Positions 31,994 through 50,310 of a stretch of DNA of 64,000 nucleotides are shown piece by piece. This DNA comes from Fibrobacteria bacterium (GTDB lineage Bacteria; Fibrobacterota; Fibrobacteria; UBA11236). A model generated the notes under the pieces. The model was not told the origin of the DNA. It was given only the letters and a program-made list of their open reading frames with translations, and ran no database searches. The stretch is taken from contig JAYTSD010000004.1 in NCBI GenBank assembly GCA_043745805.1, forward strand, positions 32,001-96,000, written 5' to 3'. The stretch's first letter is position 1, and every line of letters starts with the position of its first letter. The translations under genes were made by a program, and so were the position numbers.

Positions 31994-32650
31994 ATGCAAT
32001 TCTTGATGAAGATCGCAAAATTTGTACAAGAAGGTGGTCCTGTTGAATATATGATTCTGGGCCTCCTCGCTTTAGGATTCTCCATAATGGGAGAGCGCAT
32101 TTGGTTTTTTTATGTTAAATGTCGGATCAACTCCAAACAATTGCTGGCTGATGTCACCGCACTCATTCGCAAAGAAAAACCAATGGATGCCAGAAAGCTT
32201 TGCAGCCAAACTAAAACACCCTTAGGATATATTCTCGAAGCAGGTATTTGGAAATTCGAACAAGCCGGTTCGCCACAAGAAATAAAAGATGCCGTGGAAG
32301 AAGTGGCTTTACGAGAAATACCTCGCTTACAAAAACGCACGCATTATTTAGGCTTGCTCGCCAATCTATGTACTCTGGTAGGATTGCTCGGAACTATTTT
32401 TGGATTGCAAGAAGCTTTTTCCGCTTTAGAAGCGGCCGACCCTTCCCAAAAGAGTAAACTTTTAGCGCGTGGTATCACCTTAGCACTTAATGCCACGGCC
32501 TTAGGATTAATGTCGGCAATGATATGCATGTCTGCCTTTTCCTATTTGGGCGCACGCTCCAACTTTCTATTAGAACAGGTCGATGAAACGGTTTTGCGCT
32601 TACTGAATTTTTTAAATGCGCAAAAAAAACCGCTTGTGGAAAAGCCCTAG
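31994..32650 (+). CDS. MotA/TolQ/ExbB proton channel protein (AglR-like)
   Basis: Three TMs; LANLCTLVGLLGTIFGL, DPSQK, GITLALNATALGL. Confidence 0.93.
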   Translation: MQFLMKIAKFVQEGGPVEYMILGLLALGFSIMGERIWFFYVKCRINSKQLLADVTALIRKEKPMDARKLCSQTKTPLGYILEAGIWKFEQAGSPQEIKDAVEEVALREIPRLQKRTHYLGLLANLCTLVGLLGTIFGLQEAFSALEAADPSQKSKLLARGITLALNATALGLMSAMICMSAFSYLGARSNFLLEQVDETVLRLLNFLNAQKKPLVEKP

Positions 32651-32662
32651 TCGGAATTTCCT

Positions 32663-33142
32663 TTGAGATCTAAAAGCCACAGCTCCCGCGAAAGCGCTAT
32701 CCCAGCGGAGCCAATTGATTTAGATATGACACCTATGATGAATATGCTCATCATTTTAATCTCCTTTCTAGTCACCATGGTAGTCTTTACGCATCTTGCA
32801 GTAATCAAATTTAGTCTTCCTCCTGGGCAAGGCAATGCGGCAGCCGATACGAGTACTGCACCTAAAGGTGCGGAAGTAGATATTACGGTTTTGGTTTCGG
32901 AAGAAGGTTATCGCATTATTGGCGAGGGACGCAAACTCGATCCCATTCCAAAAAATAAAGGCCAATATGATTTACCCACCTTAGGTAAATATTTGCAAAA
33001 ATTAAAAGAAGAATTTGCAACTGCCGAAACCGTGGTGTTACTCATAGATACCTCAGTTATTTATCAAGATGTAATTTCCACTATGGATCAATGCCGCGAA
33101 AGCAAATTTCCAAAAATACTTTTATCCGGTGGTTTTGAATGA
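32663..33142 (+). CDS. ExbD/TolR family protein 1 (Asn at the conserved TM Asp position)
   Basis: DLDMTPMMNMLIILISFLV; C-terminal YQDVISTMD..R. Confidence 0.88.
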   Translation: MRSKSHSSRESAIPAEPIDLDMTPMMNMLIILISFLVTMVVFTHLAVIKFSLPPGQGNAAADTSTAPKGAEVDITVLVSEEGYRIIGEGRKLDPIPKNKGQYDLPTLGKYLQKLKEEFATAETVVLLIDTSVIYQDVISTMDQCRESKFPKILLSGGFE

Positions 33143-33621
33143 GTTTAAAGCGTCGGAAAACAACTGAAGCTATTAAACCGCAAATGACATCTTTAGTCGA
33201 TGTCCTTACAGTTTTAGTTTTTTTTCTATTAAAAAACTTTTCTACCGAAGGCGATATATTAACGCCTTCCAAAAATCTGGAATTACCTGTAAGCACTGCC
33301 ATTGCGAGGCCCGAAAAAGTTTTAACTATATCCATTAGTCGTGAAAATATTCTAGCGGATGGCCAAGCCATCGCGTCGGTAGGAGAAGAAGCGGCACGCA
33401 AAGACATTAATATCCCAGCTTTAGCGGAATGGTTAATAGAGCAAAGAAAAAATACCGAAGAGATTGCTCAATACGATGCTAATGTGAGTTTCAAAGGGGA
33501 TTTAGTGATTCAAGGCGATAAACAAATCCCGTACTGGTTACTACAAAAAGTACTGCATACCTGCGGAGAAAATGGATATGGTTCTTTTTCCTTAGCCGTA
33601 TTACAAAAAAATGATGGATAA
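33139..33621 (+). CDS. ExbD/TolR family protein 2 (AglS-like)
   Basis: QMTSLVDVLTVLVFFLLKNFS, LELPVS, IQGDKQIPY..LQKVLHTC..GY. Confidence 0.88.
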   Translation: MSLKRRKTTEAIKPQMTSLVDVLTVLVFFLLKNFSTEGDILTPSKNLELPVSTAIARPEKVLTISISRENILADGQAIASVGEEAARKDINIPALAEWLIEQRKNTEEIAQYDANVSFKGDLVIQGDKQIPYWLLQKVLHTCGENGYGSFSLAVLQKNDG

Positions 33622-34627: not shown

Positions 34628-34631
34628 TATT

Positions 34632-35543
34632 ATGCCCTTTAGCAAATCAACTTATAATCTGACATTAGTATATTCATTAATGCTATTGATATTTAATAGT
34701 ATGCCCTTATCGGCTGCCGTCATTAAAGCGGGAATGACGCTAAGTATTGTGGTTAAAAATGATCCTGCCCTTTCCCAAATGGTAAAAGTTCAAGATAATG
34801 GCACGATTGATTATCCTTTGTATCAAGACGCTTCCGTGATTGATAAAACTACTAGTGAATTACAAGATTTATTAACTTATAAATTAGCCAAAGTGGTAGA
34901 CGCACCCTTAGTTTTAGTAACGCTACTGAATGAAGTCCCAATTAGTATTTATGTATTGGGACAAGTTAAAAAACCGGGTTTAGTTAATGTTTCGTCAAAA
35001 GCCAGTTTGCAAGAAGTGTTATTGTCCGCCTTAGGAACTACCGAACAAGCAGACTTACAAAAAATAAAAGTCGTTCACAAAAACCAAGGTGATGAAAATG
35101 CGAGTTTTTATGATTTGCAAAAATTTTTGAATTCAGGCGATTTAAATCTCCTACCAACTATACTCGATGGAGACAGAGTCATAGTACTCTCCAGCAAAAA
35201 ATCAAAGTATGTGAAAGTGTTAGGAGCTGTGGTAAAACCAGGTTTTTATCCAATTACCGAAAGTGCTTCCGTTTTTGATATGCTTTATTTAGCAGGTGGG
35301 CCTAGTCCTGAAGCGAATTTAAATAAAGTAAGAATTATTGGCGGTGCCCCTAATTTAGATTTTTTACTCGATATGCAAAAATTTATCGATGAAGGAAAAA
35401 CCGCTAATTTACCTTTGTTAAATGAAGGCGATGTCATTATTGTCTATAACAAAACCTTTACTTGGTCCAAAAGTTTAGAAGTGGTACGCGATTTAGTGAC
35501 CTTAGTTACGGCATGGTTTGTCATTTCACAGGTGATTAAATAA
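34632..35543 (+). CDS. Polysaccharide export (OPX/Wza-like) protein with SLBB domains
   Basis: VQDNGTIDYPL..KTTSELQ (Poly_export), two VLGxVxKPG SLBB repeats, amphipathic C-terminal helix. Confidence 0.88.
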   Translation: MPFSKSTYNLTLVYSLMLLIFNSMPLSAAVIKAGMTLSIVVKNDPALSQMVKVQDNGTIDYPLYQDASVIDKTTSELQDLLTYKLAKVVDAPLVLVTLLNEVPISIYVLGQVKKPGLVNVSSKASLQEVLLSALGTTEQADLQKIKVVHKNQGDENASFYDLQKFLNSGDLNLLPTILDGDRVIVLSSKKSKYVKVLGAVVKPGFYPITESASVFDMLYLAGGPSPEANLNKVRIIGGAPNLDFLLDMQKFIDEGKTANLPLLNEGDVIIVYNKTFTWSKSLEVVRDLVTLVTAWFVISQVIK

Positions 35544-35544
35544 T

Positions 35545-37683
35545 ATGGTTAGTCATGGTAAAAAGGAATTAGGACTTGGTGATTACGTTAACCTAGTCAA
35601 TAAGAACAAGTATGTTCTTGTCCTAAGCATTATTTCCTTTATGTTACCGACATGGTATTTTATTCATAAAGTACCCGATTATTTTATTGCAAGTAGTCAA
35701 ATCGTAATGGATGAGAAAAAGAATAATCTCATGCTTACCGAAGAACCTGCCATGCAAAAAAATATTGGCTATTATCGTGCAATATTTCAAAGCCAAGCTT
35801 TTCTTGATAAATTACAAGAGTCGCTATCCAAAGAATTAGATAAGGCTAAGGTTAAAACGAATCGTCACACTTACTTACTTGGGCATATCACCATGGAGGA
35901 AGGTAGTTTTGAATCATTCCTTTCAATAAAAAGCAAAACCCCTTCCCCGCAACTCAGCTATGCCTTAACTAAAACGGCTACCGATAGCCTCATTATCTTT
36001 TGTCGTAAAGTGGAAAATGAAGAAGTAGAAAATGCAGTGACGGCTATCCGTGAGCAAATTGAAATTTGTGTACGTAAACGAGACGATATTCAAAAAGAAA
36101 AAAATCTTTATACTGATGCCACGCAATTAGCAAATTTGGGAGACATGGCTGGCTTGAATGCCTTAGAAAAAAACTACCAAGAAGAACTGGTGAAGCTGGA
36201 ATTAGATAAAGCCAATTTAGAAGCTAAAAAAAATTATTTTCATGGACTGGATCAAGCTGTCAATAAGTCTTCGCAAGGACCAAATGATTCGGCACTTTTG
36301 GAATATCGCAAACAATTACATATTTTAGAAAAAGAAAAAGAAAAAATGTTACGTATGGGAATTCCCGTCTCCGCTGAAAGTAAAATCACTATTGATTTAC
36401 AAGCCGCTGAAGAAAAAATTGTGCGCCTCAGCAAAAAAAATGAACCGCAAGATTTAAATCTCCTTAATCAATGGCAAGGTACACGTAAAGAAGTGGTTGC
36501 TAGCGAAGCCGAATTGCAAATGAAAAAAGCCCGGCTCGATGCCTTTAAGCGGGCAATAGTCAACTATCGCCAAAACCATCCGGATTTAGGAAAACAAGAA
36601 ATTGAAATCCAACAGCTTGATGCTTTGCTTGAACGCTATCGCGAAACGCATAAACGCTTAACGGAAAGATTAGAAGATGCAGTTATTCATTTGCAAAGTA
36701 AATCGGGAGGCTTAAAACTTGTGGATGCTGCTCAAGTCCCTACAGATCCTATTCCAAGACGCGACTTGGTGTTCTATCTCATATCTTTGCTTATTGGCTT
36801 AGCTGCAGGCATTGCATTAGGTTTAGTTCGTGAATTTATGGACGACAGTGTAAAATCTCCGGATGATGTTGAAAAACGCTTAGGACTTACTTTATTGGGA
36901 ACTATTCCCCATGTTACCGTCAAAAAAACGGATATTGAAATTCGTCGTAACTTTAAAAAGGACAATCGTACCACTATCAATAATAAATATCCTGAATTAT
37001 TATTAAGCGCCGAAAATCAAGAAAGTATTGTAGCCGAAGCCTATCGTTCCTTAAGAACCAATATCGTTTTTGCCAGCCCCGATAAAACTATTCAAACCTT
37101 ATTAATTAGTAGCAGTGGACCGGGCGAAGGAAAATCACTCACCATGGCCAATACGGCTTTAACCTTTGCGCAACAAGGCGAGCCTACTTTAATTATTGAC
37201 ACCGATTTACGTCGTCCAGTGACACATCATCTTTTTGGATTTGACCGAGGTCCGGGTTTTGGGGAATTATTTGCAGGTTCACGTACTCTCGATGAGGTAA
37301 TACGCAAGGTACCTGGAACTAATTTAAATTTAATCACCGCGGGTGCTTATACGCCTAATCCAGCTGAACTATTAGGTTCAAAAAAAATGGATAGTTTATT
37401 AGAAGAATTAAAAAAGCGTTTTCGTTTTATCCTTTTTGATACGCCTCCGGTTATCGCCGTAACCGATGCCTGTATTTTAGCCACCAAGGTAGATGGGGCG
37501 GTCATTGTGATCCGTGCGGGAAAAACAAGCTTAGCCGTTAGCGAAAGAACATTACAAAGTTTAAGGAATGTAAATGGCAAAGTACTAGGATGTATTTTAA
37601 ATGATGTGGATTTAACTAAAGGCTATAGCTCTTATGGATATTATAAACATTATTATCACAATTACGTCACCAAAAAAGATTAA
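35545..37683 (+). CDS. wzc: Polysaccharide co-polymerase / BY-kinase
   Basis: Two TMs around a coiled coil, EAYRSLRTN, Walker A GPGEGKS, IDTDLRRP, FDTPP, Tyr tail GYSSYGYYKHYYHNY. Confidence 0.95.
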   Translation: MVSHGKKELGLGDYVNLVNKNKYVLVLSIISFMLPTWYFIHKVPDYFIASSQIVMDEKKNNLMLTEEPAMQKNIGYYRAIFQSQAFLDKLQESLSKELDKAKVKTNRHTYLLGHITMEEGSFESFLSIKSKTPSPQLSYALTKTATDSLIIFCRKVENEEVENAVTAIREQIEICVRKRDDIQKEKNLYTDATQLANLGDMAGLNALEKNYQEELVKLELDKANLEAKKNYFHGLDQAVNKSSQGPNDSALLEYRKQLHILEKEKEKMLRMGIPVSAESKITIDLQAAEEKIVRLSKKNEPQDLNLLNQWQGTRKEVVASEAELQMKKARLDAFKRAIVNYRQNHPDLGKQEIEIQQLDALLERYRETHKRLTERLEDAVIHLQSKSGGLKLVDAAQVPTDPIPRRDLVFYLISLLIGLAAGIALGLVREFMDDSVKSPDDVEKRLGLTLLGTIPHVTVKKTDIEIRRNFKKDNRTTINNKYPELLLSAENQESIVAEAYRSLRTNIVFASPDKTIQTLLISSSGPGEGKSLTMANTALTFAQQGEPTLIIDTDLRRPVTHHLFGFDRGPGFGELFAGSRTLDEVIRKVPGTNLNLITAGAYTPNPAELLGSKKMDSLLEELKKRFRFILFDTPPVIAVTDACILATKVDGAVIVIRAGKTSLAVSERTLQSLRNVNGKVLGCILNDVDLTKGYSSYGYYKHYYHNYVTKKD

Positions 37684-37743
37684 TGCTTCTTGCGCATTCT
37701 TTGCACAAGTTTTAATAACCAATTGATATAGGTCACTCACGAT

Positions 37744-39357
37744 ATGCAGGAACAACTCCGAAAAATTCTTTGGAATTGTTTTCATTTCTTTTTTTCCAAT
37801 ATTTTAAGTTTTGGATTAGGGCTAGTGGCTTCCGTAGTGATGGCACGTACCTTAGGACCCAATGATTTAGGAATATATCATCAAGTGGCCTGGTTTTCGG
37901 GAACGGTTTCCGTGATAATTTCCTTAGGATTTATTACATCCATCACAAAATTTACGGCTCAGTATAAAGCGGCTGGACAAACCGCACGTATTGGAGCGGC
38001 CATTCGTTTTATTTTTATAGTAGAAGGGGGCATGGCGCTTGTTTCTACCCTTGGACTACTACTATTTGCCTCACATATTGCAGACTACTATTTCAATCCC
38101 AAACAAGTATGGCTTTTTAGTTTGTCTTTTATTGCCATTACACCGGGCATACAAACGGCAATTTTTTCTGCTACCTTAGAAGGAGCGCAAATTTTTAAAT
38201 ATCAAACCGTACATGCCTTTACGGTTACTCCTTTGGCAATCATTACCAAAGTCTATTTATTAATTAATCATTATGGATTAATCTCCTTATTCTGGTGCAA
38301 TTTAGCCTTTGCGGTGATTAATCTCAGTTTTTTTTATTGGGCCGTAAAGCGCGAAGGTCTATTACAAAATTGGCGCAACCCCAAAGAAATTGAAAGCGAT
38401 GTACGAAAAGAAATCTGGAAATATAATCGCTCATTAATTGGCATTCATTTTTTAGATCTCATTGTTTGGTCGCGTTCCGAAAATTATTTTTTAGGTCGCT
38501 TTTGCGCCGCCCCCCAAATTGCCTATTACAATCTCGCTCAAAATTTGGTTGCAAAATTAACCGGTTTAATTCCCACCCTGATGTGGAAATTATTGTTACC
38601 CTTAACCGCTGCACAACATGGACGATCCGAACATGAAAAGCTCCATCGTACATTTACGCAATCATTGCGTATCTCAGGGCTTGCCGCTTTTCCCACCATC
38701 GTAACTTGCTTTATTTCCGCTTATGAATTAATTATAATTTTTTTTGGCCATGAATATTCCGAAGTAAAAAACTGCTTTCAAGTACTCTGTATTGGCGCCT
38801 TATTTACCTCCCTCACACAAGCAGGATCTGCGGCTATCTACGCCAGTAATCGGCAAAAATTTATTCTTTATTATGGCAGTGTCTTGGCGGTTTTAAATTT
38901 AGGATTGAATTTTTATATCATTCCCAAATATGGTGCTATGGGTGCATCTATAAGTTACAGCTTAACTACTACCCTCGGAGTATTAGGAGGTTTTATTTTT
39001 ACTACGCAACAAATGCATTTAAAATTACCTTGGCGGGCTTGGCTAAAATGCGCCTTAGCTTCGGTAATTATGGCTGTGGTGCTAAGTAAATGTTTACATC
39101 AAGAATTTCTATTTTTTCATATTTTTGATTCTTTGCAAGTTTATTTAAAAAATCATATTGGCCATGATTTACATTATTTGCTAGGCGCTCGCACCGTACG
39201 TTTTGCATGCTCAATTTTCATCGCCATTTTAGTATATATTGTCGGAATTCTATTATTATTTCGCCCCAATGCGGATGACTTAAAAATGTTACATGCTTTA
39301 CAAAAAATATTTCCTAGAATTAATTTACGTATGCTTTATCGTAAAAAGGAAATATAA
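37744..39357 (+). CDS. wzx: Polysaccharide flippase (MOP family)
   Basis: ARTLGPNDLGIY, 12-14 TMs, YYNLAQ, IIPKYGAMGA. Confidence 0.9.
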   Translation: MQEQLRKILWNCFHFFFSNILSFGLGLVASVVMARTLGPNDLGIYHQVAWFSGTVSVIISLGFITSITKFTAQYKAAGQTARIGAAIRFIFIVEGGMALVSTLGLLLFASHIADYYFNPKQVWLFSLSFIAITPGIQTAIFSATLEGAQIFKYQTVHAFTVTPLAIITKVYLLINHYGLISLFWCNLAFAVINLSFFYWAVKREGLLQNWRNPKEIESDVRKEIWKYNRSLIGIHFLDLIVWSRSENYFLGRFCAAPQIAYYNLAQNLVAKLTGLIPTLMWKLLLPLTAAQHGRSEHEKLHRTFTQSLRISGLAAFPTIVTCFISAYELIIIFFGHEYSEVKNCFQVLCIGALFTSLTQAGSAAIYASNRQKFILYYGSVLAVLNLGLNFYIIPKYGAMGASISYSLTTTLGVLGGFIFTTQQMHLKLPWRAWLKCALASVIMAVVLSKCLHQEFLFFHIFDSLQVYLKNHIGHDLHYLLGARTVRFACSIFIAILVYIVGILLLFRPNADDLKMLHALQKIFPRINLRMLYRKKEI

Positions 39358-40547
39358 TGAAGCTGGTTTTTATTGATTCCGAACCTCCATTGACTCATGG
39401 CGGCGGCATTCGAACTTACTTACTCAATCATCTATCACTTGCGCAATCCGCTGGAATCACTACGGTAATTTATACGCATAATATTGAAGCCTATAAAGGC
39501 TACAATGCAAAGCCCATACACAGAAAACCCTGCTTATCTTGGCCATGGTTAAGCATCGCGCATCGATGGTTTTATGGAAATTTGGTAAACTTGGAATATG
39601 CTTATGGTTTAGTTTCGGTTTTAGAACAAGAAATCGAGCCACACACTATTTTTGAATTTCCTGATTATGGCGCTTATGGATTTTTTTGTTTCCAATCTCC
39701 CCGATTAGCACTGCATAGTTATATGCGTATTCATACACCGAGCTATTTGATTAGCCCCGCTGAAATAAATATTAAAAAGCGATTACAAGGTTATGTCATG
39801 GGGTTTTGTGAGCGATGGGCCATAAAAAGATCGCCTACTATTCTGGCTTTATCTGCTGCTTTTATGCAAGAAAAACTTCCTTGGATAAAATCCTATAAAA
39901 CCTTACTCCCCACTTTGCCTAGCCTTGCTAACATGGACTCTATTACCCCTTTAGCAGATTCATCTTTCCCAAATAAATCAGCATTGCAAATCTCAAAAAA
40001 AAAATCCCGCCGATTACTTTTTATCGGCAGAATAGAAAATCGCAAAGGAGTGCATGTTTTAGTATCGGCCTTTTTAAACTTTGTACAATCCCATCCAGAT
40101 TATGAATTACAGATTATAGGTAGCATTGGCGAACCTTCATACTATCAAACATTACTCCAACAACAAAACCAGCATCCTCAAGGCCAATCCATTCAGTTTT
40201 TACCGACTTGCACGCGCTCCGAATTATTTCAATCTATGCAAGAAGCCTTCTGTTTAATCATTCCTTCATTATGGGAAAATTGTCCCAATGTATTTTTCGA
40301 AGGATTAGCGGCGGGGATTTTTTGCTTAGTCTCCGCTACCGGTGAAATGAAAACCTTGGGTGAAAAAATGGGACTACCGCTTTTCAAACCAGGAGATAGC
40401 GAATCTTTAGAGGAGGCATTAATACACATTACCGCTTCCGATTTTCCTCGCCCAAATTTTATTGAAAAGCAAAACAATTTTTTGCGACAAGCTAAACCAC
40501 AAGGCGATTTGGACATTCTGAATTTTTACCATGAGAAAAGTGCATGA
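39357..40547 (+). CDS. GT4 glycosyltransferase
   Basis: GGIRTY, FIGRIENRKG, PSLWENCPNVFFEGLAAG. Confidence 0.9.
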   Translation: MKLVFIDSEPPLTHGGGIRTYLLNHLSLAQSAGITTVIYTHNIEAYKGYNAKPIHRKPCLSWPWLSIAHRWFYGNLVNLEYAYGLVSVLEQEIEPHTIFEFPDYGAYGFFCFQSPRLALHSYMRIHTPSYLISPAEINIKKRLQGYVMGFCERWAIKRSPTILALSAAFMQEKLPWIKSYKTLLPTLPSLANMDSITPLADSSFPNKSALQISKKKSRRLLFIGRIENRKGVHVLVSAFLNFVQSHPDYELQIIGSIGEPSYYQTLLQQQNQHPQGQSIQFLPTCTRSELFQSMQEAFCLIIPSLWENCPNVFFEGLAAGIFCLVSATGEMKTLGEKMGLPLFKPGDSESLEEALIHITASDFPRPNFIEKQNNFLRQAKPQGDLDILNFYHEKSA

Positions 40548-41785: not shown

Positions 41786-42368
41786 AAGGGCCATTGATAT
41801 TTTAGGGGCATTTTTAGGATTAATGCTACTCTTCCTCTTATTCTTCATACTTGTTCCCATCATGAAATTAACTTCACCTGGTCCGATTTTTTTTGTGCAA
41901 ACAAGAGTAGGACAATATGGCCGTCATTTTAAATTCATAAAATTCCGTACCATGAATGTGAACGCTCATTTAAAACAATGGGAACTCGATAATTTAAATG
42001 AAACGGGTGGATTAACTTTTAAAGTTACCCATGACCCCCGTATTACAAAATTCGGTAATCTACTACGTAGAAGTAGTTTGGATGAAATGCCACAATTTTG
42101 GAATGTCCTCAAAGGCGAAATGTCTTTGATTGGGCCTCGCCCTCCTCTATTGCATGAAGTTTTACAATATAATGAAACCCAAAAAATACGCATGACGGTT
42201 CCCCAAGGCATGAGTGGATTATGGCAAGTGCGCGGCCGCTCTAATTTGAAATTTAAAGAAATGGTAGATTTAGATACTTATTATGCATTACATGCCAACG
42301 CCCATTTAGATTTAAAAATTTTAATTTCCACTTTACCCGCCGTCATATTAGGCCGAGGCTCAGCTTAA
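41736..42368 (+). CDS. Initiating phosphoglycosyl transferase (small Bac_transf domain only)
   Basis: KRAID, KFRTM, DPRIT, SLDEMPQ, MSLIGPRP, GLWQV; the in-frame ATG at 41736 is the more likely start. Confidence 0.93.
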   Translation: MIKKLEKRTTQLYPWIKRAIDILGAFLGLMLLFLLFFILVPIMKLTSPGPIFFVQTRVGQYGRHFKFIKFRTMNVNAHLKQWELDNLNETGGLTFKVTHDPRITKFGNLLRRSSLDEMPQFWNVLKGEMSLIGPRPPLLHEVLQYNETQKIRMTVPQGMSGLWQVRGRSNLKFKEMVDLDTYYALHANAHLDLKILISTLPAVILGRGSA

Positions 42369-42384: not shown

Positions 42385-43287
42385 ATGGCAGAAATTACTT
42401 TAGCATTAGTGACTTATAATCAAGCATATTATTTAAAAATTTTTCTCCAAAATTATTTATTACATAATCATATGGGTATTCCCTTACTAATTATTGATGA
42501 TGGCTCTACAGATGAAACCTCTGCATTATTAAAAAAAGTTCCCCCTTCGATTAAAGTATTCAACACCTCACATCAAAGCATTGCCGCCGCACGCAATTTG
42601 GCTTTAAAAAATTGTGAGACCCCATGGATAGCTTTTTCGGATACCGACTGCATTTTAAGTGAAACCTATTTTAATTGTATACAGCAAATACCGAATAAAT
42701 ATGCCGGTTTCCCTGCCTTAGAAGGTTCGGTTTGGCCTCCTTATAAATCCATTCCACCCCTAACCCATTTTGTAATGAACCGTAAAGGTGGCATGTATGT
42801 TACTGCAAATATGGCTTACCATATTGAGTCTATAAATACATTGGGTGGATTTGATTTGGCCTTTGGAAATTATCGTGAAGATGTGGATTTAGCGCTAACT
42901 ATTTTGGAACAGAAAAAAACTATTCCTTTTTGGCTTGAATGGAAAGTGGAACACCCGTATATTCCGCGTAAATTTTGGAAAACTTTAAAAAATCTCTATA
43001 CAGATCAATACAAAATTGTGCAGACGGAAATTCGCTTATATGTAAAGCATCCGCTTACTTATAATAAAGTTCGCTTTGCAAACAATGCTGAAAGAACTTT
43101 AAAGAATTGGTGCCAAAGACATACCTTTGAAATTATTAAACAAAGATGGATTTATTTAAAAGAAAACAAATCCACTTCTTGGGGTGAATGGCTACATCGG
43201 ATAATCTTAAGTGGAGAAAGCATAATTATTGCTGTCGTGGAACAAGCTTGTCTTAATATATTTTATTTAAACCGTAGTAAAAATTAA
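42385..43287 (+). CDS. GT2 glycosyltransferase
   Basis: VTYNQ, IDDGSTD, AARN, FSDTD, REDVDL. Confidence 0.88.
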   Translation: MAEITLALVTYNQAYYLKIFLQNYLLHNHMGIPLLIIDDGSTDETSALLKKVPPSIKVFNTSHQSIAAARNLALKNCETPWIAFSDTDCILSETYFNCIQQIPNKYAGFPALEGSVWPPYKSIPPLTHFVMNRKGGMYVTANMAYHIESINTLGGFDLAFGNYREDVDLALTILEQKKTIPFWLEWKVEHPYIPRKFWKTLKNLYTDQYKIVQTEIRLYVKHPLTYNKVRFANNAERTLKNWCQRHTFEIIKQRWIYLKENKSTSWGEWLHRIILSGESIIIAVVEQACLNIFYLNRSKN

Positions 43288-43293
43288 CTCTTC

Positions 43294-44430
43294 ATGTTAC
43301 CCACTAATCCCAAAAAGAAAATCCTAATCATTTGGCATGGATCTATCGTTCCTGCTTATCAAGATTTTTTCGTAGCTTTGTCGAAATTTTATCAAGTCAG
43401 AGTATTAGTACCCAAACAATGGACGCATGGTTCCGCATTATATTCTAGCCACGAAACACTTCCTAAATCAAAAAACAACATCCCTTGTGAATTTATACTT
43501 TCCACTTATTGGCCTAAACATAGCGCAAAATATTTAGTTCCGGCCTTAATACCACAACTCATAAGTTACCATCCCGATATCCTTTATATCATGGATGAAA
43601 GGGATAGAATAAATACGGCGATTCATTTAGGCTTGGCCAAATTATTAAGGCCGAAAATAAAAACTGCAACCTATTCTTTGCAAAACATTTTAAATCCCGC
43701 TTATCACAAAAGTTATCATCGATTAGCTTATGTAATCAATAATCATTTAACCGATATTGCCTTAGCCGCCAGCACTGAGGCATTAGAAGTATTACAACAA
43801 ATGGATTACCGAGGAGTTATGGCAACCATTCCACTTTCCGTGAATGCTGAGCTGTTCATTCCCCTCCCAAAATCAATGCTCACTTCCGAAACATTAAACA
43901 CAAAAATCCATTTACTATATGCTGGAAGTTTACATCAAGCAAAAGGACTGGCTCTCTTATCCCAAGCTTTACCACTTTTTCCCCATATACAATTACATAT
44001 TGCAGGTAATGGTCCCTTACTCCCTACTCTGCAAAAACAATTAGGGCCACAATTAATTTATCATGGAACATTAACAGGACAAGATTTAATTGCCTTTTAC
44101 CATTTGGGTGATTATGTAATTTTACCTTCACTCATAACTCAAAACTGGAAAGAACAAATTGGTCGCGTACTTTTGGAAGCCATTTGTTGTGGCTGCACCG
44201 CTTTGGGAAGTAATTCAGGTTATATTCCCCAACTCACTTTGTTTCCAGAAGTTACCTTTCAAGCAAATGAACTTTCATCATTGCAAGATTTATTAACTCG
44301 ATTAATTTCCTTAGACAAGCAAAACATTTGGCAAAAACAATATGAAAATATTTTGCAAAATTATAGCAATCCAAAAATAGCTGAAAAAACTTTTCACGCA
44401 CTAAATCAAACAAAAAATAAAACCTTATGA
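43294..44430 (+). CDS. GT4 glycosyltransferase
   Basis: YAGSLHQAKG, WKEQIGRVLLEAICCG. Confidence 0.88.
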   Translation: MLPTNPKKKILIIWHGSIVPAYQDFFVALSKFYQVRVLVPKQWTHGSALYSSHETLPKSKNNIPCEFILSTYWPKHSAKYLVPALIPQLISYHPDILYIMDERDRINTAIHLGLAKLLRPKIKTATYSLQNILNPAYHKSYHRLAYVINNHLTDIALAASTEALEVLQQMDYRGVMATIPLSVNAELFIPLPKSMLTSETLNTKIHLLYAGSLHQAKGLALLSQALPLFPHIQLHIAGNGPLLPTLQKQLGPQLIYHGTLTGQDLIAFYHLGDYVILPSLITQNWKEQIGRVLLEAICCGCTALGSNSGYIPQLTLFPEVTFQANELSSLQDLLTRLISLDKQNIWQKQYENILQNYSNPKIAEKTFHALNQTKNKTL

Positions 44431-45512
44431 AAATTGCTTTCCTGCATCGCGATCTACCTCCCGACTCTTATACCGGAGTGGCCCTACAGGTGCATAGGCT
44501 GGCCAATGCTTTGACGCGATTAGGACATAGCGTGACTATTTTTACGCATACGTCGCCCTCACCCGAAGCGCTTTATCAAGTACAATTAATCAATTCTATT
44601 TACTTTCGTATCGTCCAAAAATACTTTTCACCTTGGAAACGCTTACTTTTCCCAATCGGTTATCGGTTTTTAAGTTTTTCAGAATTTGACATTATACATA
44701 TTCATGGCGATGGCGGATTTTTAAAATACCAAACAAATTATTTACGCTCCTTTTATGGTACGGCCGCCTTAGAAAGAAAATTTTCTTTACACTGGAAAGG
44801 CAAGTTAGCACAAAGCATTTCTTATTTATTGGAAAAGAGAGAAAGTCAGCGGTCGCCACTGAGCACTGGTATTTCGCCCCATATAACAAATTATTTGCCC
44901 CAAGTAAAAAATATTATTCCTTGTATGTTACCGCAACCTATTTCTGAAACACCCTGTGAAAAATCAACTGCCCCAATGCTTTTGTTTTTAGGATCCAGAA
45001 ATTCTCGAAAGCAAGGAGACGCCATGCTTACACTTTTTAAAAAAATCCATTTACAAATCCCTACTGCCATTTTGGAATATGTGAGTTCGATTCATGATGC
45101 TGAATCCTTGAAAAAAACCGTGGCTTTAAATTCCGAAAGTTGGGCAAAACAAATTCGAATTAGTTATAAGTTATCCTCCGACGACTTACAAAAATTATAT
45201 GGCAAAAGTTGGATCTATATAAGCCTTTCAACCTATGAAGGTTTTGGCGTTAGTTTAATAGAAGCCATGGCCGCAGGTTGCATAGTATTCTCTACTTTAC
45301 ATCCTGGCTCAGAATTTATTTTGCAGGATGGAAACAATGGATATTTTCTCGAAAACTCCATTTCGCCTGAAAAAGTAATCTGGGCTTTACAAAATTACTC
45401 CACACAAAAAAAAATCGGCCTAAATGCGCAGAAATTTGCCCATCCATTTGAACCCCAAGAGATTGCTGAAAAGTACCTTACACTCTATGCTACAATTAAA
45501 GCAAAATGCTGA
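44427..45512 (+). CDS. GT4 glycosyltransferase
   Basis: YEGFGVSLIEAMAAG; N-terminal LPP..TGV. Confidence 0.88.
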   Translation: MKIAFLHRDLPPDSYTGVALQVHRLANALTRLGHSVTIFTHTSPSPEALYQVQLINSIYFRIVQKYFSPWKRLLFPIGYRFLSFSEFDIIHIHGDGGFLKYQTNYLRSFYGTAALERKFSLHWKGKLAQSISYLLEKRESQRSPLSTGISPHITNYLPQVKNIIPCMLPQPISETPCEKSTAPMLLFLGSRNSRKQGDAMLTLFKKIHLQIPTAILEYVSSIHDAESLKKTVALNSESWAKQIRISYKLSSDDLQKLYGKSWIYISLSTYEGFGVSLIEAMAAGCIVFSTLHPGSEFILQDGNNGYFLENSISPEKVIWALQNYSTQKKIGLNAQKFAHPFEPQEIAEKYLTLYATIKAKC

Positions 45513-47032
45513 ATTATTTAGTGAATAAGTTTAAGCAAAATAGCTTCCAAACATGGATGCTAATTTTGCTTCCTCTTGTGGGAACGCTCTTTGCTTATCG
45601 CCTAGTTAAAATTCCCTCTCGTATTGAGATCGCCATTTTTTTTATTGGCGTCTTTCTATTTCCCAGTTTAAAGTTCCCTAATTTTTCGATCTACTATTTA
45701 TTTAGTATACCTTGCTTTATACCCATGTTTCGCCGAATGTATTACTTGGTCGCCGATAGGCCTACGGTTGATTATTTGATGCTTATCTCAGATGGTATTA
45801 TGGTTTTCTTTTTTATTGCTTTGGTTTTTCTTTGGGTTTATAACAAAGAGAAAGTCGAAGATAAAATGTCCGTACTTATTATGTCCTATAGTTTTTGGCT
45901 ATTTTCGAAAATATTCATATTAAATGAAAGTACCGTGCTGGAAGGTTTCTATGGCTTTAAATTCAATGGACTCTATATTCCTTTTTATTTTGCAGGGAGT
46001 TATTTGATACGTAACTCTTTAGAATTAAAAAAAATTTTACGTTTCGTAACCTATATTCTGATATTCACCGCGCTTTATGGCATTAAACAAATTGTGTTTG
46101 GATTTAGTAATTTTGAGCAAAGTTGGATTGACTCTATTGCCTTCACTACTTTAAAAATCGAAGGTGTAGTACGCCCTTTTTCCACATTTGTATCTCCTGC
46201 AGCGATGTCGGATGCTATGAGTGCGCTTATTTTATTCGGTGCATTTTGGTTAATTATAAAACAAAATTTTTGTTGGGCATTGGGATTATTAGCTATAGTT
46301 TCAGCTATACCTCCTATATTAATCGCTACGGTGCGTACTAATTGGTTTGCATCCATAGCTGGACTCGGATTTTATTTTGGCTATTTACGGATAAAACAAA
46401 AATGGCTAAAAATTGCGGGTCTATTGTTAATTATTTGCTTTAGTATTTTTTATTCCTCCAAAACCGACACCAAAATCGATAGTGATAATGCGCGCTTGTC
46501 CGGTCAAAGCAAACATGAAAAACGTTCGCTTAGCGATATAATGATTAAAAATCGTACCCAAGCTTTAACCAATCCCTTACAAGAATATAGTCTACAAAAG
46601 CGTATGGAAATTTGGACGGATATTTGGAACGGATCATTTGTACAGCCTTTAGGAAAAGGCATGGGAACGTCCGGCTATGCACACAGTTATTATTTTCAGC
46701 TCCTAGGCGAAGCAGGTTTTCCCGGCATAGCGCTTTATCTCACCATACTCATTATTTTATTTCGAAGGTGTTTTATCATTCTTAAAAATAATCTGGACAA
46801 AAATGATTTAGAAATGACTCGATTTTTTTTAACTATACTTTTCACGTTCTCTATTTTAAATATTACTGGAACGCATTTATGTTCAAACCCTGCTGACATT
46901 TTATTTTGGTTTAGTGGGGGAGCCATTTCTTATTTATTTAAAAAAACTTTAGCAGAAAAAACTATCGCTAATGCCATGGCAATTACAAGTAAATTTCCTC
47001 CCCTTTCGGAACTCGAAGCGAGACAACTTTAA
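45506..47032 (+). CDS. O-antigen ligase / Wzy-like polymerase
   Basis: About 12 TMs, RPFSTF, TVRT, R..IW..PLGKG.G...AHSYYFQLLGEAG (Wzy_C-like). Confidence 0.82.
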   Translation: MLNYLVNKFKQNSFQTWMLILLPLVGTLFAYRLVKIPSRIEIAIFFIGVFLFPSLKFPNFSIYYLFSIPCFIPMFRRMYYLVADRPTVDYLMLISDGIMVFFFIALVFLWVYNKEKVEDKMSVLIMSYSFWLFSKIFILNESTVLEGFYGFKFNGLYIPFYFAGSYLIRNSLELKKILRFVTYILIFTALYGIKQIVFGFSNFEQSWIDSIAFTTLKIEGVVRPFSTFVSPAAMSDAMSALILFGAFWLIIKQNFCWALGLLAIVSAIPPILIATVRTNWFASIAGLGFYFGYLRIKQKWLKIAGLLLIICFSIFYSSKTDTKIDSDNARLSGQSKHEKRSLSDIMIKNRTQALTNPLQEYSLQKRMEIWTDIWNGSFVQPLGKGMGTSGYAHSYYFQLLGEAGFPGIALYLTILIILFRRCFIILKNNLDKNDLEMTRFFLTILFTFSILNITGTHLCSNPADILFWFSGGAISYLFKKTLAEKTIANAMAITSKFPPLSELEARQL

Positions 47033-48138
47033 TGCCCACTATTCTGATCATTGGACATCCTTTAGTAGCCATCGAAAACAGTTTAGCTTTTGAACCTTTG
47101 GAAGGTTTTAATATTTATCTTATTGCACCTACATCATGGAAGGCTCGTAGTTTGGGACATAGTTATACCAAACAATATTCGTTAACAAAGTCCAATACAA
47201 ATTTAAAACAACTGTTTCTACCCGTTTGGTTTTCTGGTTATAATTCTTTATTTCTTTGGCGTGGCTTAAGCAAACAATTAAAAAAAATCCGTCCCGATTT
47301 AATTTATTGTTGGGAAGAACCATGGTGCCTAGCCACTTGGCAAATTCGTAAAACCGCATCCTATTTAAATAAACCTTGGATTTTTTATTCCGCAGAAAAT
47401 AGACCTAAAGCACTACCTTGGTTTTTCCAAAGACTACAAAAATTAGCATTTATCAGTAGCATGGGTTGTATTGCGCCTACCGATGCAGTAACTCATCAGT
47501 TACGTTATTTGGGATTTAAAAAACCTGTGGGAATTGTTCCTCTATGGGTTCGTCCTTCCCAAAACCATCTCTTTGATACCAACAAACCCTGCCTAGCTTA
47601 TGTAGGTCGACTCATTACTTTAAAGCGAGTAGACTGGTTGATTGAAGCACTAATTTGGCTGCCTGATTTTACCTTAAAAATTATTGGAGATGGTCCAGAA
47701 CGCTCCGCCTTAAAAAATTTAGCCCAGCAATGCAAATGCGAAAATCGAGTTTTATTTTTTGGGCATTGTCCTAATGAAAAAATCCCGGAGGCATTAATAG
47801 ATTGTGGACTAGTTGTTATTCCCACTGCAGAAACATCACAACGTGCAGAGCAATTTGGCAAAGCCGCATTAGAAGGTATAGCTTATGGGTTACCTGTACT
47901 AACGAGCCGAAGCGGGCATTATCCTGAATTAGAAAAACAAATCCCCACTTTAAGCGCCCAAGATTTTACAAATCCACAAGGACTTGCCGAAAGTATTAAA
48001 TCTATTTTTGCGAATTATCCCAGCCTAGAAACGCGCTTGATGGCTCGCGAAAGAGTTAATCGCTTGTATGGCCCGACAGCGGCGGCTGCCGCCATACATA
48101 CATTTTTCATTTCTCTATTTCAAAAAATCGATGGCTAA
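47032..48138 (+). CDS. GT4 glycosyltransferase
   Basis: YVGRLITLKRV, IGDGPER, EQFGKAALEGIAYGLPV. Confidence 0.88.
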   Translation: MPTILIIGHPLVAIENSLAFEPLEGFNIYLIAPTSWKARSLGHSYTKQYSLTKSNTNLKQLFLPVWFSGYNSLFLWRGLSKQLKKIRPDLIYCWEEPWCLATWQIRKTASYLNKPWIFYSAENRPKALPWFFQRLQKLAFISSMGCIAPTDAVTHQLRYLGFKKPVGIVPLWVRPSQNHLFDTNKPCLAYVGRLITLKRVDWLIEALIWLPDFTLKIIGDGPERSALKNLAQQCKCENRVLFFGHCPNEKIPEALIDCGLVVIPTAETSQRAEQFGKAALEGIAYGLPVLTSRSGHYPELEKQIPTLSAQDFTNPQGLAESIKSIFANYPSLETRLMARERVNRLYGPTAAAAAIHTFFISLFQKIDG

Positions 48139-49264
48139 AAGTAATGCTCACCTACGTCGCTGCGAAGAATTTATTTCACGCATTTTATTGTCCATTTATG
48201 GTTTTTTTTATCTTAAAAAAAAGCCTCCATCCAAGCCCATAGGTCGCATTTTATTATGTAAAACCTGTTGTTTAGGTGATGCGGTATTAACGCTCTATGC
48301 CATTCGCGCCTTTAAATATCAATATCCGGATATCGAATTGCATGTATTAGCCAGTCGTCGCGTAGAAAATGTGTATGTGCAATCCTCACTCATCACTCAA
48401 GTACATACACTTCCCTTAACAGGCCGTAACTTAGTCCAAGAATTATTGCAAATAAGTTTTTGGGTAAATCTTATGCGAACTTTTATACGGCTGCGCCAAT
48501 TAGAGTTTACTCAATATATTGATTTTGAATTATATCGCAGCTATGGGAGTTTTGTAAAAACCCTTTTGGGAATTCCTTTTTCACGCGGATTTTCGGTTAC
48601 CGGCGCTCCCGATAAATTTCATGACTTAAATATCGAACGACAACGAAACATTCCGGAATGGGAGTGTTTTTATGCCTTACTTGGCTTAAATATTCCAACC
48701 GAAAAACCAGCCCCAATTTATTTTCCCTTAAAAAAGAGTATGCCTTTAAAAAGACTCGGTATTGTGTTTGGCTCCTCATTTAATTGGCCGCAAAAAAAAT
48801 GGCCGCGAGAAAATTTTGCAACTGCCATTCAACAATTAGGATTAATATATCCGGATTTGGAAATAATAATTTTTGGTGTACCCTCCGAAAACGAAGATGG
48901 AAAGTGGATTGAAACACATACTTCATCAATTCTGCGCATCCAAAATACCGTTGGCCAACTTCACTTTAATGGATTAATTGAAATGCTATCCACTTGCGAT
49001 GCTGTATTTGGAAATGATACGGGAACCATGCATGTCGCTGCCGCATGTGGAATCCCCACCTTTACTTTATTTGGACCCACACGGCCTTTAAAATGGAATC
49101 CGTTGACCTCGATTCCCATTTTTATCGACCTACCTTGTCGCCCCTGTTATTATTTGGGATCGATGCCCGATTGCAATCATTTCAGTTGCCTTAAACAATT
49201 AAAACCCGAAATTGTGGTCGCACAAATAGAAAAGTTCTTCGGTAAAAAATCAGTTTCGTGTTAA
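48131..49264 (+). CDS. GT9 (heptosyltransferase-like) glycosyltransferase
   Basis: LGDAVL, KKWP, GNDTGTMHVAAA, LFGPT, CRPC...C..FSCL; the in-frame ATG at 48131 is the likely start. Confidence 0.9.
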   Translation: MAKSNAHLRRCEEFISRILLSIYGFFYLKKKPPSKPIGRILLCKTCCLGDAVLTLYAIRAFKYQYPDIELHVLASRRVENVYVQSSLITQVHTLPLTGRNLVQELLQISFWVNLMRTFIRLRQLEFTQYIDFELYRSYGSFVKTLLGIPFSRGFSVTGAPDKFHDLNIERQRNIPEWECFYALLGLNIPTEKPAPIYFPLKKSMPLKRLGIVFGSSFNWPQKKWPRENFATAIQQLGLIYPDLEIIIFGVPSENEDGKWIETHTSSILRIQNTVGQLHFNGLIEMLSTCDAVFGNDTGTMHVAAACGIPTFTLFGPTRPLKWNPLTSIPIFIDLPCRPCYYLGSMPDCNHFSCLKQLKPEIVVAQIEKFFGKKSVSC

Positions 49265-49275
49265 ATTAAACTTAC

Positions 49276-50310
49276 ATGAAAAAGAAAAAAACTTGGGCCA
49301 TGCCCTCTGCATTCGTTTTGATTTTGGGCTTTTGTCTTTGCACCATTGGACTCGCCTTAATTTGGAAAAGTACACCCAATCCACAACTAGAAAAAGACCC
49401 TGCCAGCGGATTTGTGCTTTATGAAGTGACCTCAAAATTATCCTTAGGTGAATTATCTACCGACTTACAAGCCAAAGGTTTAATTCCCGAAAAACATTTG
49501 TTCAAATGGTTTTTACGCCTCACACAGCAAGACCGAAAAATCCGCGCGGGCTATTATTATTTATCACCCTCCAATTCCACTTTGAAAATGGCTTGGAAGC
49601 TAACTACTGGTAAAATGGCTACACGTTCCGTGTCTATTCCCGAAGGTAAAGCCAGTTGGGAGATTTATTCGCTTATAAATAATATTATCCCCATCGACAG
49701 TTTGCAGTTCGACTCATTAGTCCATAGTCAAGCCTTCGCCAAAGAACAGGGCATCCATGCGCCGAGCTTGGAAGGTTATTTGTTTCCCGAAACCTATGTG
49801 TTACCTTTAAAAATTTCGGCCCATGACATATTGAAAATCATGACCCAGCAATTTCATACCGTGATTGGAGATGTCGCCAAGGACTCGCCAGTGATACAAA
49901 AATATGGCGTCAATGGATGGATCACTTTAGCATCCATTGTGGAAAAAGAAGCGGCGGTAAAAAGTGAACAAAGTTTAATTGCAGGAGTATTTTATAAACG
50001 CTTACAATTAGGTTGGAGTCTAGGAGCGGATCCCACGGTGCGTTTTATTTTGCATAAATTAACTGGACCCTTGTACGCTTCGGAACTCGATAACAATTCG
50101 CCCTACAATACCCGTAAATTCCCAGGCCTTCCTCCCGGTCCTATTTGCAGCCCAGGGAAAATGGCTTTGCTCGCTAGTTTAAATCCTCCCGAAACGAATA
50201 ATCTTTATTTTGTGGCCAAAGATGATGGCTCCAGAGAACATTTTTTTTCGCGTAATAATGAAGAACATATGCGGTATAAATCTCGCGCTGCGGCAAATCG
50301 GGGAAAGTAG
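49276..50310 (+). CDS. mltG: Endolytic transglycosylase MltG (YceG family)
   Basis: IPEG, LEGYLFPETY, LASIVEKE, DPTV, SPYNT, GLPPGPICSPG, LYFVA. Confidence 0.96.
   Translation: MKKKKTWAMPSAFVLILGFCLCTIGLALIWKSTPNPQLEKDPASGFVLYEVTSKLSLGELSTDLQAKGLIPEKHLFKWFLRLTQQDRKIRAGYYYLSPSNSTLKMAWKLTTGKMATRSVSIPEGKASWEIYSLINNIIPIDSLQFDSLVHSQAFAKEQGIHAPSLEGYLFPETYVLPLKISAHDILKIMTQQFHTVIGDVAKDSPVIQKYGVNGWITLASIVEKEAAVKSEQSLIAGVFYKRLQLGWSLGADPTVRFILHKLTGPLYASELDNNSPYNTRKFPGLPPGPICSPGKMALLASLNPPETNNLYFVAKDDGSREHFFSRNNEEHMRYKSRAAANRGK

Follow-up and report, generated by a model that had tools for sequence, protein, structure and literature searches.

Why do the genes of an apparent proton-driven envelope motor stand directly ahead of the genes of a polysaccharide exporter? 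The question is raised by a block of 17 genes in an uncultured member of Fibrobacterota (Fibrobacteria bacterium, lineage UBA11236; assembly GCA_043745805.1), which lies within the 64,000-nucleotide (nt) stretch of DNA analyzed here (contig JAYTSD010000004.1, positions 32,001 to 96,000), hereafter the window. The block opens with an ExbB-like gene, two ExbD-like genes (ExbD1 and ExbD2) and the gene of a TonB-like transducer of the GltG/PglI type. Only 4 nt after the transducer stop codon (34627/34632) it runs on into the gene of a Wza-like outer membrane polysaccharide export (OPX) protein, followed by Wzc, the flippase Wzx, further glycan genes and MltG, as assigned with Pfam and NCBIfam.

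Proton motors of the Tol, Exb and Agl kinds serve nutrient uptake, envelope integrity, gliding and the spreading of spore coats. To our knowledge, export by Wza and Wzc has been treated as a process without energy input at the outer membrane, and we know of no motor among the parts of the described Wza-Wzc systems. In this study, we report that the motor, OPX and Wzc genes form a six-gene unit that is kept together in distant families of the phylum, analyze the proteins of the motor and their phylogeny, and weigh, with some reserve, whether the motor acts on the export conduit.

Conservation of the motor-OPX junction in Fibrobacterota

A set of 296 genomes of the phylum, the window's own included, was searched with the ExbB-like and OPX proteins, and the coordinates of the matches were compared by eye, an ExbB protein at least 49% identical being counted as an ortholog of the motor. 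Both the motor type and an OPX ortholog were identified in 68 of the 295 other Fibrobacterota genomes. The OPX gene lies about 3 kb downstream of ExbB, on the same contig and strand, in 62 of these 68, namely in 17 of 18 genomes of the window's family and in 45 of 50 genomes from eleven other families (16/17 for the family and 61/67 overall when the unpublished genome G021 is left out). Among the exceptions, G276 still has its GltG-like gene adjoining OPX on a contig that begins inside the motor (locus L026), and G120 and G108 are interrupted by contig edges; three further genomes are taken up below, where our interpretation is weighed. An additional genome, G026, from another family of the order, has ExbB in the same neighborhood and OPX at a contig end. 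The adjacency had been named in a first reading of the window, made from its sequence alone (hereafter the sequence-only reading), as the point to check in relatives, and it extends well past the close ones.

Presence and absence of the two parts follow each other closely. OPX without this motor type was found in five genomes (three of a sister family, the other two 77% and 88% complete) and the motor type without OPX in a single genome that is 84% complete, and five further families, represented by 151, 12, 2, 2 and 2 genomes, yielded neither. In genus g4, whose genomes are small, the motor type is present in 1 of 12 and OPX likewise in 1 of 12.

The loci of the window's family were compared more closely; they overlap with the species set of the genome survey, and the two sets are not independent. 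At all 17 family loci the transducer gene is placed between an upstream ExbD-like gene and a downstream OPX gene, and the full order ExbB-ExbD1-ExbD2-transducer-OPX is found in all 16 loci that reach ExbB. Wzc is the next gene in 16, and Wzx and the first glycosyltransferases then follow wherever the family contigs extend far enough. The transducer and OPX genes are separated by -4 to 92 nt in 16 of the 17 loci; the spacer reaches 245 nt in the remaining one and, outside the family, measures 8-35 nt in 13 loci.

Outside the family, the whole block is carried by 14 of the 15 loci compared, and the ExbB tree and the tree of OPX and Wzc are broadly congruent. Only the six genes ExbB-ExbD1-ExbD2-GltG-like-OPX-Wzc are common to the distant families, which have different upstream genes and different glycosyltransferases. 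Judging by the source names of its proteins, the transducer family is also found in metagenome-assembled genomes of Chitinispirillaceae and in the cultured species Chitinispirillum alkaliphilum, which is placed in another class of Fibrobacterota by NCBI.

In these other families, the motor comes after two tetratricopeptide repeat (TPR) genes: 13 of the 15 loci have TPR-like tblastn matches upstream, and at L042, the one such locus scanned with Pfam, the two genes encode proteins of 791 and 982 aa. The same locus carries a 108-aa STAS-domain gene (L042:6886-7212; 64.8 bits) between ExbD1 and ExbD2, found at the same place in L041, L047 and L074, which hints at a partner-switching control of the motor.

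Proteins of the predicted motor

The ExbB-like protein falls below the equivalog cut-offs of both of its better-known relatives, with 54.1 bits against the TolQ model (cut-off 221) and 33.2 bits against the ExbB model (cut-off 206), and an ExbD/TolR-type subunit reaches 27.6 bits against the TolR equivalog (cut-off 127). Orthologs of the ExbB-like protein are 64-82% identical inside the family and 49-57% identical in other families of the phylum. It retains what we take to be the GT and T motifs of the second and third transmembrane helices.

The two ExbD-like proteins differ at the position expected to carry protons. The membrane helix of ExbD1 has the motif TPMMN, in which Asn replaces the usual Asp, and that of ExbD2 has TSLVD, with the Asp kept. 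This division is shared with the paralogous systems described below, the D1 line having Asn (Gly in a TolQ-ExbD1 fusion) at the membrane-Asp position of TolR and ExbD and the D2 line keeping Asp. The pattern suggests a mixed ExbD1/ExbD2 pair with one proton site, a stoichiometry that is presumed.

The transducer exceeds the cut-off of the AgmX/PglI domain model NF033768 (Table 1), as do, with 83.5-94.7 bits, three of its orthologs in other families and also the GltG-like proteins of the core-complex-like and secA-locus motors. None of the five TonB proteins tested (two from operons of TonB-dependent transporters (TBDT) and three of the genome's own TonBs), nor TolA, reaches this cut-off, the highest score being 20.4 bits. 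Against the GltG model NF033760 the transducer scores 59.4 bits under a cut-off of 650, and only the C-terminal half of the model is covered (residues 19-337 on model positions 332-647); the transducer of locus L042, from another family, aligns to this model over residues 4-328. Among TonB models, TIGR01352 is passed with 29.9 bits (cut-off 27.1) and Pfam TonB_C is missed with 22.2 bits (cut-off 24.6), and a phmmer search of PDB returned only TonB C-terminal domains, as weak matches (E 0.03-0.39).

The AlphaFold2 model of the transducer shows a transmembrane helix (residues 24-46), then disorder and a long helix spanning 102-138; its C-terminal domain (245-337) is modeled with pLDDT above 90. 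The five best Foldseek matches of this head are C-terminal domains of TonB or FusB (E 2e-3 to 7.5e-3, probability 1.00, TM score by target 0.51-0.60), with no match at E 1e-3. Several short motifs of the linker are conserved in the window's family and in other families. In the membrane helix, the SxxxC of the window's family aligns with SxxxH in most rows of the other families, the latter being what we take to be the motif of E. coli TonB and TolA. By the AgmX/PglI profile, the transducer belongs to the GltG/PglI type and differs from ordinary TonB proteins, as the sequence-only reading had proposed for its C-terminal domain.

Phylogeny of the motor

The stator phylogeny covers the systems found within the phylum, and the comparison with Agl is made through the in-phylum core-complex-like paralog. 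In an ExbB tree obtained by a careful search, the motor proteins of the window's family and of the other families form one clade (97/97), which is sister (98/95) to the ExbB of a system with the gene order ExbB-ExbD-ExbD-TonB-TBDT. The core-complex-like and secA-locus types branch next, and TolQ and the TonB2-type ExbB proteins fall outside. Forcing the motor and the core-complex type together costs 21.6 log-likelihood units (approximately unbiased test, p = 0.03), for a group that was named after the tree had been seen.

The ExbD tree resolves into two old paralog lines, D1 and D2, each represented in all four systems. In the D1 line, the motor and the TBDT-linked system are sisters (91); in the D2 line they share a joint clade (91), the sister relation not being cleanly resolved. 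In a tree of the last 105 residues of the transducers, the TBDT-linked TonBs group with the ordinary TonBs of the genome (98); this group includes neither the motor's transducer nor the GltG-like proteins of the core-complex type, among which resolution is weak.

On these trees, the stator is a member of a superfamily with one ExbB and two ExbD proteins that spans TonB-type and GltG-type systems, combined here with a GltG-type transducer, and the motor is an old paralog of the core-complex-type motor with a different downstream partner. The set of one TolQ and two TolR homologs had been read as a hallmark of the Agl motor in the sequence-only reading; this view has to be given up, as the same architecture heads the ExbB-ExbD-ExbD-TonB-TBDT operons of the phylum. 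That reading had also held that a grouping with TonB-ExbBD uptake systems would speak against a dedicated export machine, and such a grouping was found for the stator, whose sister is TBDT-linked, but not for the transducer.

In the sister system, the TBDT itself (L056:9131-11821, L059:6693-9566) is composed of an N-terminal TonB_C domain and a CarboxypepD_reg domain, then the Plug and the barrel, and comes after a separate TonB gene.

Other motors and glycan loci of the genome

The window's genome is 99% complete and encodes 10 proteins of the MotA/ExbB family. Apart from the motor under study, we identified MotAB, a complete TolQRA-TolB-Pal-CpoB cluster and three TonB2-type clusters with the order DUF3450-ExbB(long)-ExbB-ExbD-TonB-TPR. 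A further cluster beside mreBCD contains a TPR gene (1190 aa), a TolQ-like gene, two TolR-like genes, a GltG-like gene and two more genes. Five families of the class have conserved this cluster, which is present in the block-bearing other families too and by its gene content fits the Agl/Glt core complex reported in Fibrobacter (PMC3169522). The six Plug-domain genes of the genome are all on contigs other than the window's, and Poly_export matches number six, at five places.

A fourth motor type was observed at the secA locus of a sister family (L020, G030:C36; L021, G027:C33; L022, G028:C176), between the gene of a 1706-aa protein and secA. It comprises a TolQ-like protein of 255 aa, a TolQ-ExbD1 fusion of 429 aa, an ExbD of 160 aa, a GltG-like protein of 325 aa and a 204-aa protein. 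In the window's genome, the 1706-aa gene directly abuts secA, with no motor in between.

A second adjacency of motor and glycan genes was noted elsewhere in the window's genome (L003, G000:C43:28000-47000), with - strand ORFs at 8177-17443 and + strand ORFs at 4295-8154 of this locus. Here a DUF3450-ExbB(long)-ExbB-ExbD-TonB-TPR cluster runs, without a change of strand and with gaps no wider than 65 nt, into the genes of a 390-aa protein, a Wzy_C protein and Wzx, and a divergent set of OPX, family 4 glycosyltransferase (GT4), methyltransferase and family 2 glycosyltransferase (GT2) genes adjoins it. The genome's two remaining TonB2-type clusters have no such continuation into glycan genes.

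Export proteins

The AlphaFold2 model of the OPX protein (mean pLDDT 86.4) comprises a PES domain, a pair of SLBB domains and, at the C terminus, a helix of ~25 residues (278-302, pLDDT 85-94) that is conserved in all 20 aligned orthologs. The top nine Foldseek matches are full-length alignments with chains of E. coli Wza (2J58 and 9R6x chains; E from 7e-19 down). The C-terminal helix of E. coli Wza has 35 residues (PMC9603273), and a Wza_C domain was not reported by Pfam in the present protein at E <=0.01. No lipobox was found either: the signal peptide ends in Ser-Ala-Ala, and Cys is absent. A lipoprotein signal is carried by about 78% of class 1 OPX proteins (PMC9603273). Under the scheme of that paper the protein looks class 1-like, despite its shorter helix and the missing Wza_C match.

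Wzc scores 182 bits against TIGR01007 (cut-off 108) and ends in a tail with 7 Tyr in its last 17 residues. When motor-linked Wzc proteins were compared with the three Wzc proteins of a sister family that lacks the motor, 18 of the 148 columns conserved in the former differed in all three of the latter, nine of them within the first 400 residues. This is a weak hint of change after motor loss and could reflect either a relaxed contact with the motor or lineage drift.

Organization of the gene block in the window

The features of the locus are collected in Table 1. All 17 open reading frames (ORFs) of the block are co-directional in the ORF list of the window, its widest intergenic gap being the 60 nt between Wzc and Wzx (37683 to 37744) and the remaining junctions being gaps of 1-16 nt or overlaps. 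Two long overlaps, of 116 and 71 nt, result from the choice of the longest ORF for the genes of the initiating polyprenyl-phosphate sugar phosphotransferase (PGT) and the family 9 glycosyltransferase (GT9). The Bac_transf domain of the PGT begins at residue 39 of an ORF that overlaps the preceding gene by 116 nt, and the true start probably lies downstream of 41670. The matches of Wzx and PGT are above their cut-offs, and that of Wzy_C is below its own.

Table 1. Features of the motor-export block and its upstream flank (positions in the window; aa, amino acids)
Feature	Position	Strand	Support
Small secreted protein, 152 aa, divergent neighbor of the operon start	31284-31742	-	signal peptide
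Sigma70-like promoter, TAGACA-18-TATAAT	31927-31956	+	11/12 consensus matches
ExbB/TolQ-like stator channel subunit, 218 aa	31994-32650	+	PF01618, 85.8 bits
ExbD/TolR-like subunit 1, Asn at membrane proton site	32663-33142	+	PF02472, 51.8 bits
ExbD/TolR-like subunit 2, membrane Asp kept	33139-33621	+	PF02472, 53.7 bits
GltG/PglI-type TonB-like transducer, 338 aa	33611-34627	+	NF033768, 75.2 bits (cut-off 40)
Wza-like OPX, 303 aa, C-terminal helix	34632-35543	+	Poly_export and two SLBB
Wzc-type polysaccharide co-polymerase / bacterial tyrosine (BY) autokinase, 712 aa	35545-37683	+	TIGR01007, GNVR, P-loop
Wzx-type flippase	37744-39357	+	Polysacc_synt_3, 85.1 bits
GT4	39357-40547	+	Glycos_transf_1, 63.9 bits
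GT4	40544-41785	+	Glycos_transf_1, 67 bits
Initiating PGT	41670-42368	+	Bac_transf, 199 bits
GT2	42385-43287	+	Pfam
GT4	43294-44430	+	Pfam
GT4	44427-45512	+	Pfam
Wzy / O-antigen-ligase-like membrane protein	45506-47032	+	Wzy_C, 27.9 bits (below cut-off 31.7)
GT4	47032-48138	+	Pfam
GT9	48068-49264	+	Pfam
MltG	49276-50310	+	TIGR00247, 180.6 bits

The layout given in the sequence-only reading, 17 co-directional genes with gaps of at most 60 nt behind one sigma70-like promoter, was borne out by the ORF list and by comparison of the family loci. The promoter at 31927-31956 on its own proves little, because the scan that found it returned fewer sites than chance overall (47 versus 60.8 in shuffled sequence). 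The call gains weight from its conserved position: a -10 hexamer stands at the same place in all 16 aligned family loci, as exact TATAAT in 12 and with one mismatch in 4, and is preceded by a -35 TTGCAT or TTGAAT in 15 of the 16. It lies 35-45 nt ahead of the ExbB start, or 105 nt in two loci. No strong + strand terminator was found inside the block, which agrees with the same reading, the only candidates being stems of 5 pairs (17 sites versus 18.9 expected). The gene order from the motor to Wzx, with its 4-nt spacing, likewise stands. The run of five GT4, a PGT and a GT2 listed after it does not, since the order after Wzx is GT4, GT4, PGT, GT2, GT4, GT4, Wzy_C-like, GT4, GT9, MltG.

The block is flanked by housekeeping genes, and among the 34 flanking ORFs scanned there was none with a Plug, TBDT, TolB or Pal domain, in line with the earlier remark that no TonB-dependent receptor or tolB/pal is nearby. 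Its last gene, MltG, was no better than a syntenic neighbor. The sequence-only reading had considered it a possible working part of the system; it is a housekeeping gene, because 39 of the 41 genomes searched (the window's and 38 of 40 relatives) have a single copy each and small genomes without the motor and the exopolysaccharide (EPS) operon have it too. It lies ~14-15 kb downstream of OPX, in a motor-less genome too.

The divergent 152-aa gene ahead of the block is syntenic in 15 of 17 family loci, these being the 15 that reach that far, and also adjoins the motor-less operon of the sister family; a profile search gave no family match for its secreted product. A promoter-like TTGTGA-17-TATATT of this gene (31773-31801, - strand) lies inside a motif, AGCAATATATAG ... 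ACACAAGG, whose conservation extends to roughly half of the family loci. Further upstream, at 25725-27890, a 721-aa cytoplasmic protein without family match is encoded, which is syntenic in all 15 family loci with an upstream flank; its C-terminal part resembles a degenerate GGDEF domain, as judged from the sequence by eye alone.

Proposed mechanism and alternatives

The first four genes of the block would encode an inner-membrane proton-driven motor of the kind known from ExbB/ExbD-TonB, TolQR-TolA and AglRQS-GltG, dedicated to export through Wza and Wzc. Its stator would be formed by the ExbB-like channel and a mixed ExbD1/ExbD2 pair, in which only the Asp of ExbD2 can be protonated, and would drive the GltG/PglI-type transducer. 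The membrane helix of the transducer would dock on the stator and its TonB-like head would reach the outer-membrane side, where it would open, hold or pull the Wza-like translocon and in this way release the Wzx/Wzy polymer across the outer membrane.

That the motor head acts on the OPX/Wzc conduit is, in our estimate, a plausible reading that falls a little short of probable, the protein contact, the partner and the use of energy being read from gene context. A functional link is suggested because the junction is deeply conserved amid changing flanks, its spacers are short or overlapping, the promoter is conserved and the two parts co-occur almost perfectly. The OPX protein is the favored partner of the head because the paralogous systems also place an outer-membrane candidate after the transducer, a TBDT after TonB and, on weak leads, a possible beta-barrel after the core-complex GltG-like protein. 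No other client is needed, because the genome has a separate Tol-Pal system, MotAB and three TonB2-type systems for its six Plug-domain proteins. The full claim, that Wza-type export in Fibrobacterota is energized and that an ExbB-ExbD1-ExbD2-driven TonB/GltG-like transducer mechanically gates or pulls the OPX-Wzc conduit, is put forward tentatively and we regard it as doubtful. If true, this would be the first dedicated proton motive force motor for Wzx/Wzy-pathway export, and it would suggest that the GltG-type motor family, the Agl/Glt core complex included, had glycan handling, not motility, as its old role.

Several observations weigh against a motor that acts on the conduit. Export as such does not need this motor, because a sister family (G027, G029, G030) keeps an orthologous OPX-Wzc-Wzx-glycosyltransferase operon with no motor ahead of it, and no motor of the studied type was found in the six genomes of that family searched; the different GltG-type motor at the secA locus is present there. 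Three genomes (G116, G044 and G295) hold both parts at separate places, with unrelated genes after the motor and OPX-Wzc elsewhere. The OPX protein has no N-terminal extension before its PES domain that could be used as a TonB box, and its architecture is the same with and without the motor, since of 56 columns conserved in motor-linked OPX proteins none differs in all three motor-less sequences. The nearest relative of the stator in the ExbB tree serves a TonB-dependent transporter. Finally, a -10-like GTATAAT is conserved before OPX in 8 of 18 family loci and allows separate transcription. Separate transcription of OPX had been named in the sequence-only reading as evidence against a joint machine; it may apply to these loci, and no such -10-like element is present in the 4-nt spacer of the window. 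The eight loci (L029, L030, L032-L036, L038) share a GATCC-N5-GTATAATC element 20-45 nt ahead of the OPX start, which is likely an internal promoter in one genus.

The motor-less operon starts directly after the divergent 152-aa gene, behind a similar promoter (TTGCA-N17-TAnAAT). In the tree of concatenated OPX and Wzc, the motor-less family is sister to the window's family (100) and both stand apart from the other families (100), so the motor was lost in the sister family and not gained in the window's. Two other histories were considered and rejected: a recent insertion of the motor into an older EPS operon, given the block in other families and the same tree, and a relocation of the motor to the secA locus in the motor-less family, given that the secA cluster forms its own lineage nearer to the core-complex type.

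The alternative that survives best is that the motor acts after export, in the manner of the Agl-Nfs machine: it would move or anchor polymer already exported, or the sites of export, along the surface and would not open the translocon. We consider it unlikely, although it accommodates several of our results: the transducer is homologous to the membrane/periplasmic half of GltG and passes the AgmX/PglI model, the two large TPR genes precede the motor in other families, a placement like that of GltD and GltE in the core complex, and the loss of the motor from a family that keeps the EPS operon would fit an accessory role after export. It can also draw on the Agl-Nfs precedent and on the interaction of AglR with GltG (PMC3858216, PMC3169522). 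It sits less well with the locus itself, as no GltA, GltB, GltC or GltK-type partner genes were seen in the window and no TPR genes at the family locus, and with the rest of the genome, where a separate core-complex-like cluster lies beside mreBCD and the stator under study is nearer to the TonB/TBDT-linked one.

A Tol-like supporting role, in which the motor tethers or remodels the outer membrane or peptidoglycan at the sites or times of heavy polymer export, is co-regulated with the EPS genes and does not act on the export proteins, seems to us quite unlikely. The better score of the ExbB-like protein with TolQ than with ExbB (54 versus 33 bits), the TonB/TolA-type fold of the head, the persistence of export in the motor-less family and an OPX protein without any motor-specific feature are all compatible with it. 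Against this stand the complete Tol-Pal cluster elsewhere in the genome and the near-perfect joint occurrence and adjacency with one OPX-Wzc pair out of six Poly_export matches at five places, which such a role would not predict. That the motor is an unrelated neighbor, a TonB-type energizer for uptake or for an unlinked outer-membrane protein that shares the promoter region and keeps its place by inertia, is improbable: its sister relation to the TBDT-linked stator, the three genomes with separated parts, the absence of the motor from one family and the likely internal promoter in one genus would suit it, but the adjacency in 62 of 68 genomes despite 49-57% ExbB identity and different flanks, the short or overlapping spacers, a transducer that is not of the TonB type accompanying TBDTs in the phylum, and the joint loss of motor type and OPX in the small genomes of genus g4 (each in 1/12) speak against it.

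Under the preferred reading, a motor head that acts on the OPX/Wzc conduit, the six-gene motor-OPX-Wzc block found across the phylum is a testable candidate for energized polysaccharide export or placement. It is small enough for transfer to a laboratory host, and it offers a way into what the GltG-type core complex motors do. Three parallel systems exist in the phylum, each combining the same stator design with another outer-membrane partner.

Comparison with known systems

The export half of the system resembles the Wza-Wzc machinery of E. coli (group 1 capsule, colanic acid) in the full-length Wza fold of its OPX protein, in a BY-kinase Wzc with a Tyr-rich tail, and in the Wzx, Wzy-like and PGT proteins encoded in the operon. 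It differs in that the present OPX, at 303 aa, is the shorter protein, lacks a predicted lipoprotein signal, and has a C-terminal helix of only ~25 residues without a Wza_C match. Two papers on OPX proteins (PMC9603273, PMC12819527) make no mention of TonB or ExbB, and the latter none of TolQ.

Tol-Pal shares the stator family, the ExbB-like protein scoring better with the TolQ than with the ExbB model. It is set apart by scores far under the TolQ and TolR cut-offs (54 versus 221 and 27.6 versus 127), by the position of TolQ outside the motor clade and by the genome's own Tol-Pal system elsewhere. The closest stator is that of the ExbB-ExbD-ExbD-TonB-TBDT system, which also has the ExbD1 Asn/ExbD2 Asp pattern and a TonB-fold head; there, the fourth gene encodes a true TonB (TonB_C passed, NF033768 not reached) and is followed by a TBDT, whereas here a GltG/PglI-type transducer is followed by OPX. 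TonB loci with two ExbD genes are also reported from Bacteroidota in a preprint on the TonB of P. gingivalis, whose tonB mutant has a thinner capsule; the link to the present system is indirect.

Luciano et al. (2011, PMC3169522) described the Agl/Glt core complex (aglRQS with gltD, gltE, gltG and gltC) in bacteria that do not glide, Fibrobacter among them. The present motor has a stator and transducer of the same kind and, in other families, the two preceding TPR genes; the window locus has no TPR genes, and the separate mreBCD-linked cluster fits the core complex better.

The likeness to AglRQS with GltG/NfsG, as described for Myxococcus xanthus, extends to one TolQ-like and two TolR-like subunits, a protonatable Asp in the membrane helix of one TolR-like protein (ExbD2), and a transducer that is homologous to the membrane/periplasmic half of GltG and carries an AgmX/PglI C-terminal domain. 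In Myxococcus, the functional link of such a motor to a Wza-type exported polysaccharide is established: the AglRQS-Nfs machine moves or anchors the Exo spore-coat polysaccharide, whose exo genes are at a separate locus (PMC3858216). Here, by contrast, the motor genes stand in line with OPX and Wzc, no Glt/Nfs outer-membrane or periplasmic genes are found at the locus, the transducer is without the N-terminal half of GltG, and the stator is not closest to the core-complex-like paralog of the phylum. No earlier description of a motor-OPX operon was found in the literature searched, from which most subscription journals and supplements fell outside. What appears to be new in the operon is that a known kind of motor is paired with a new class of partner, the OPX-Wzc conduit.

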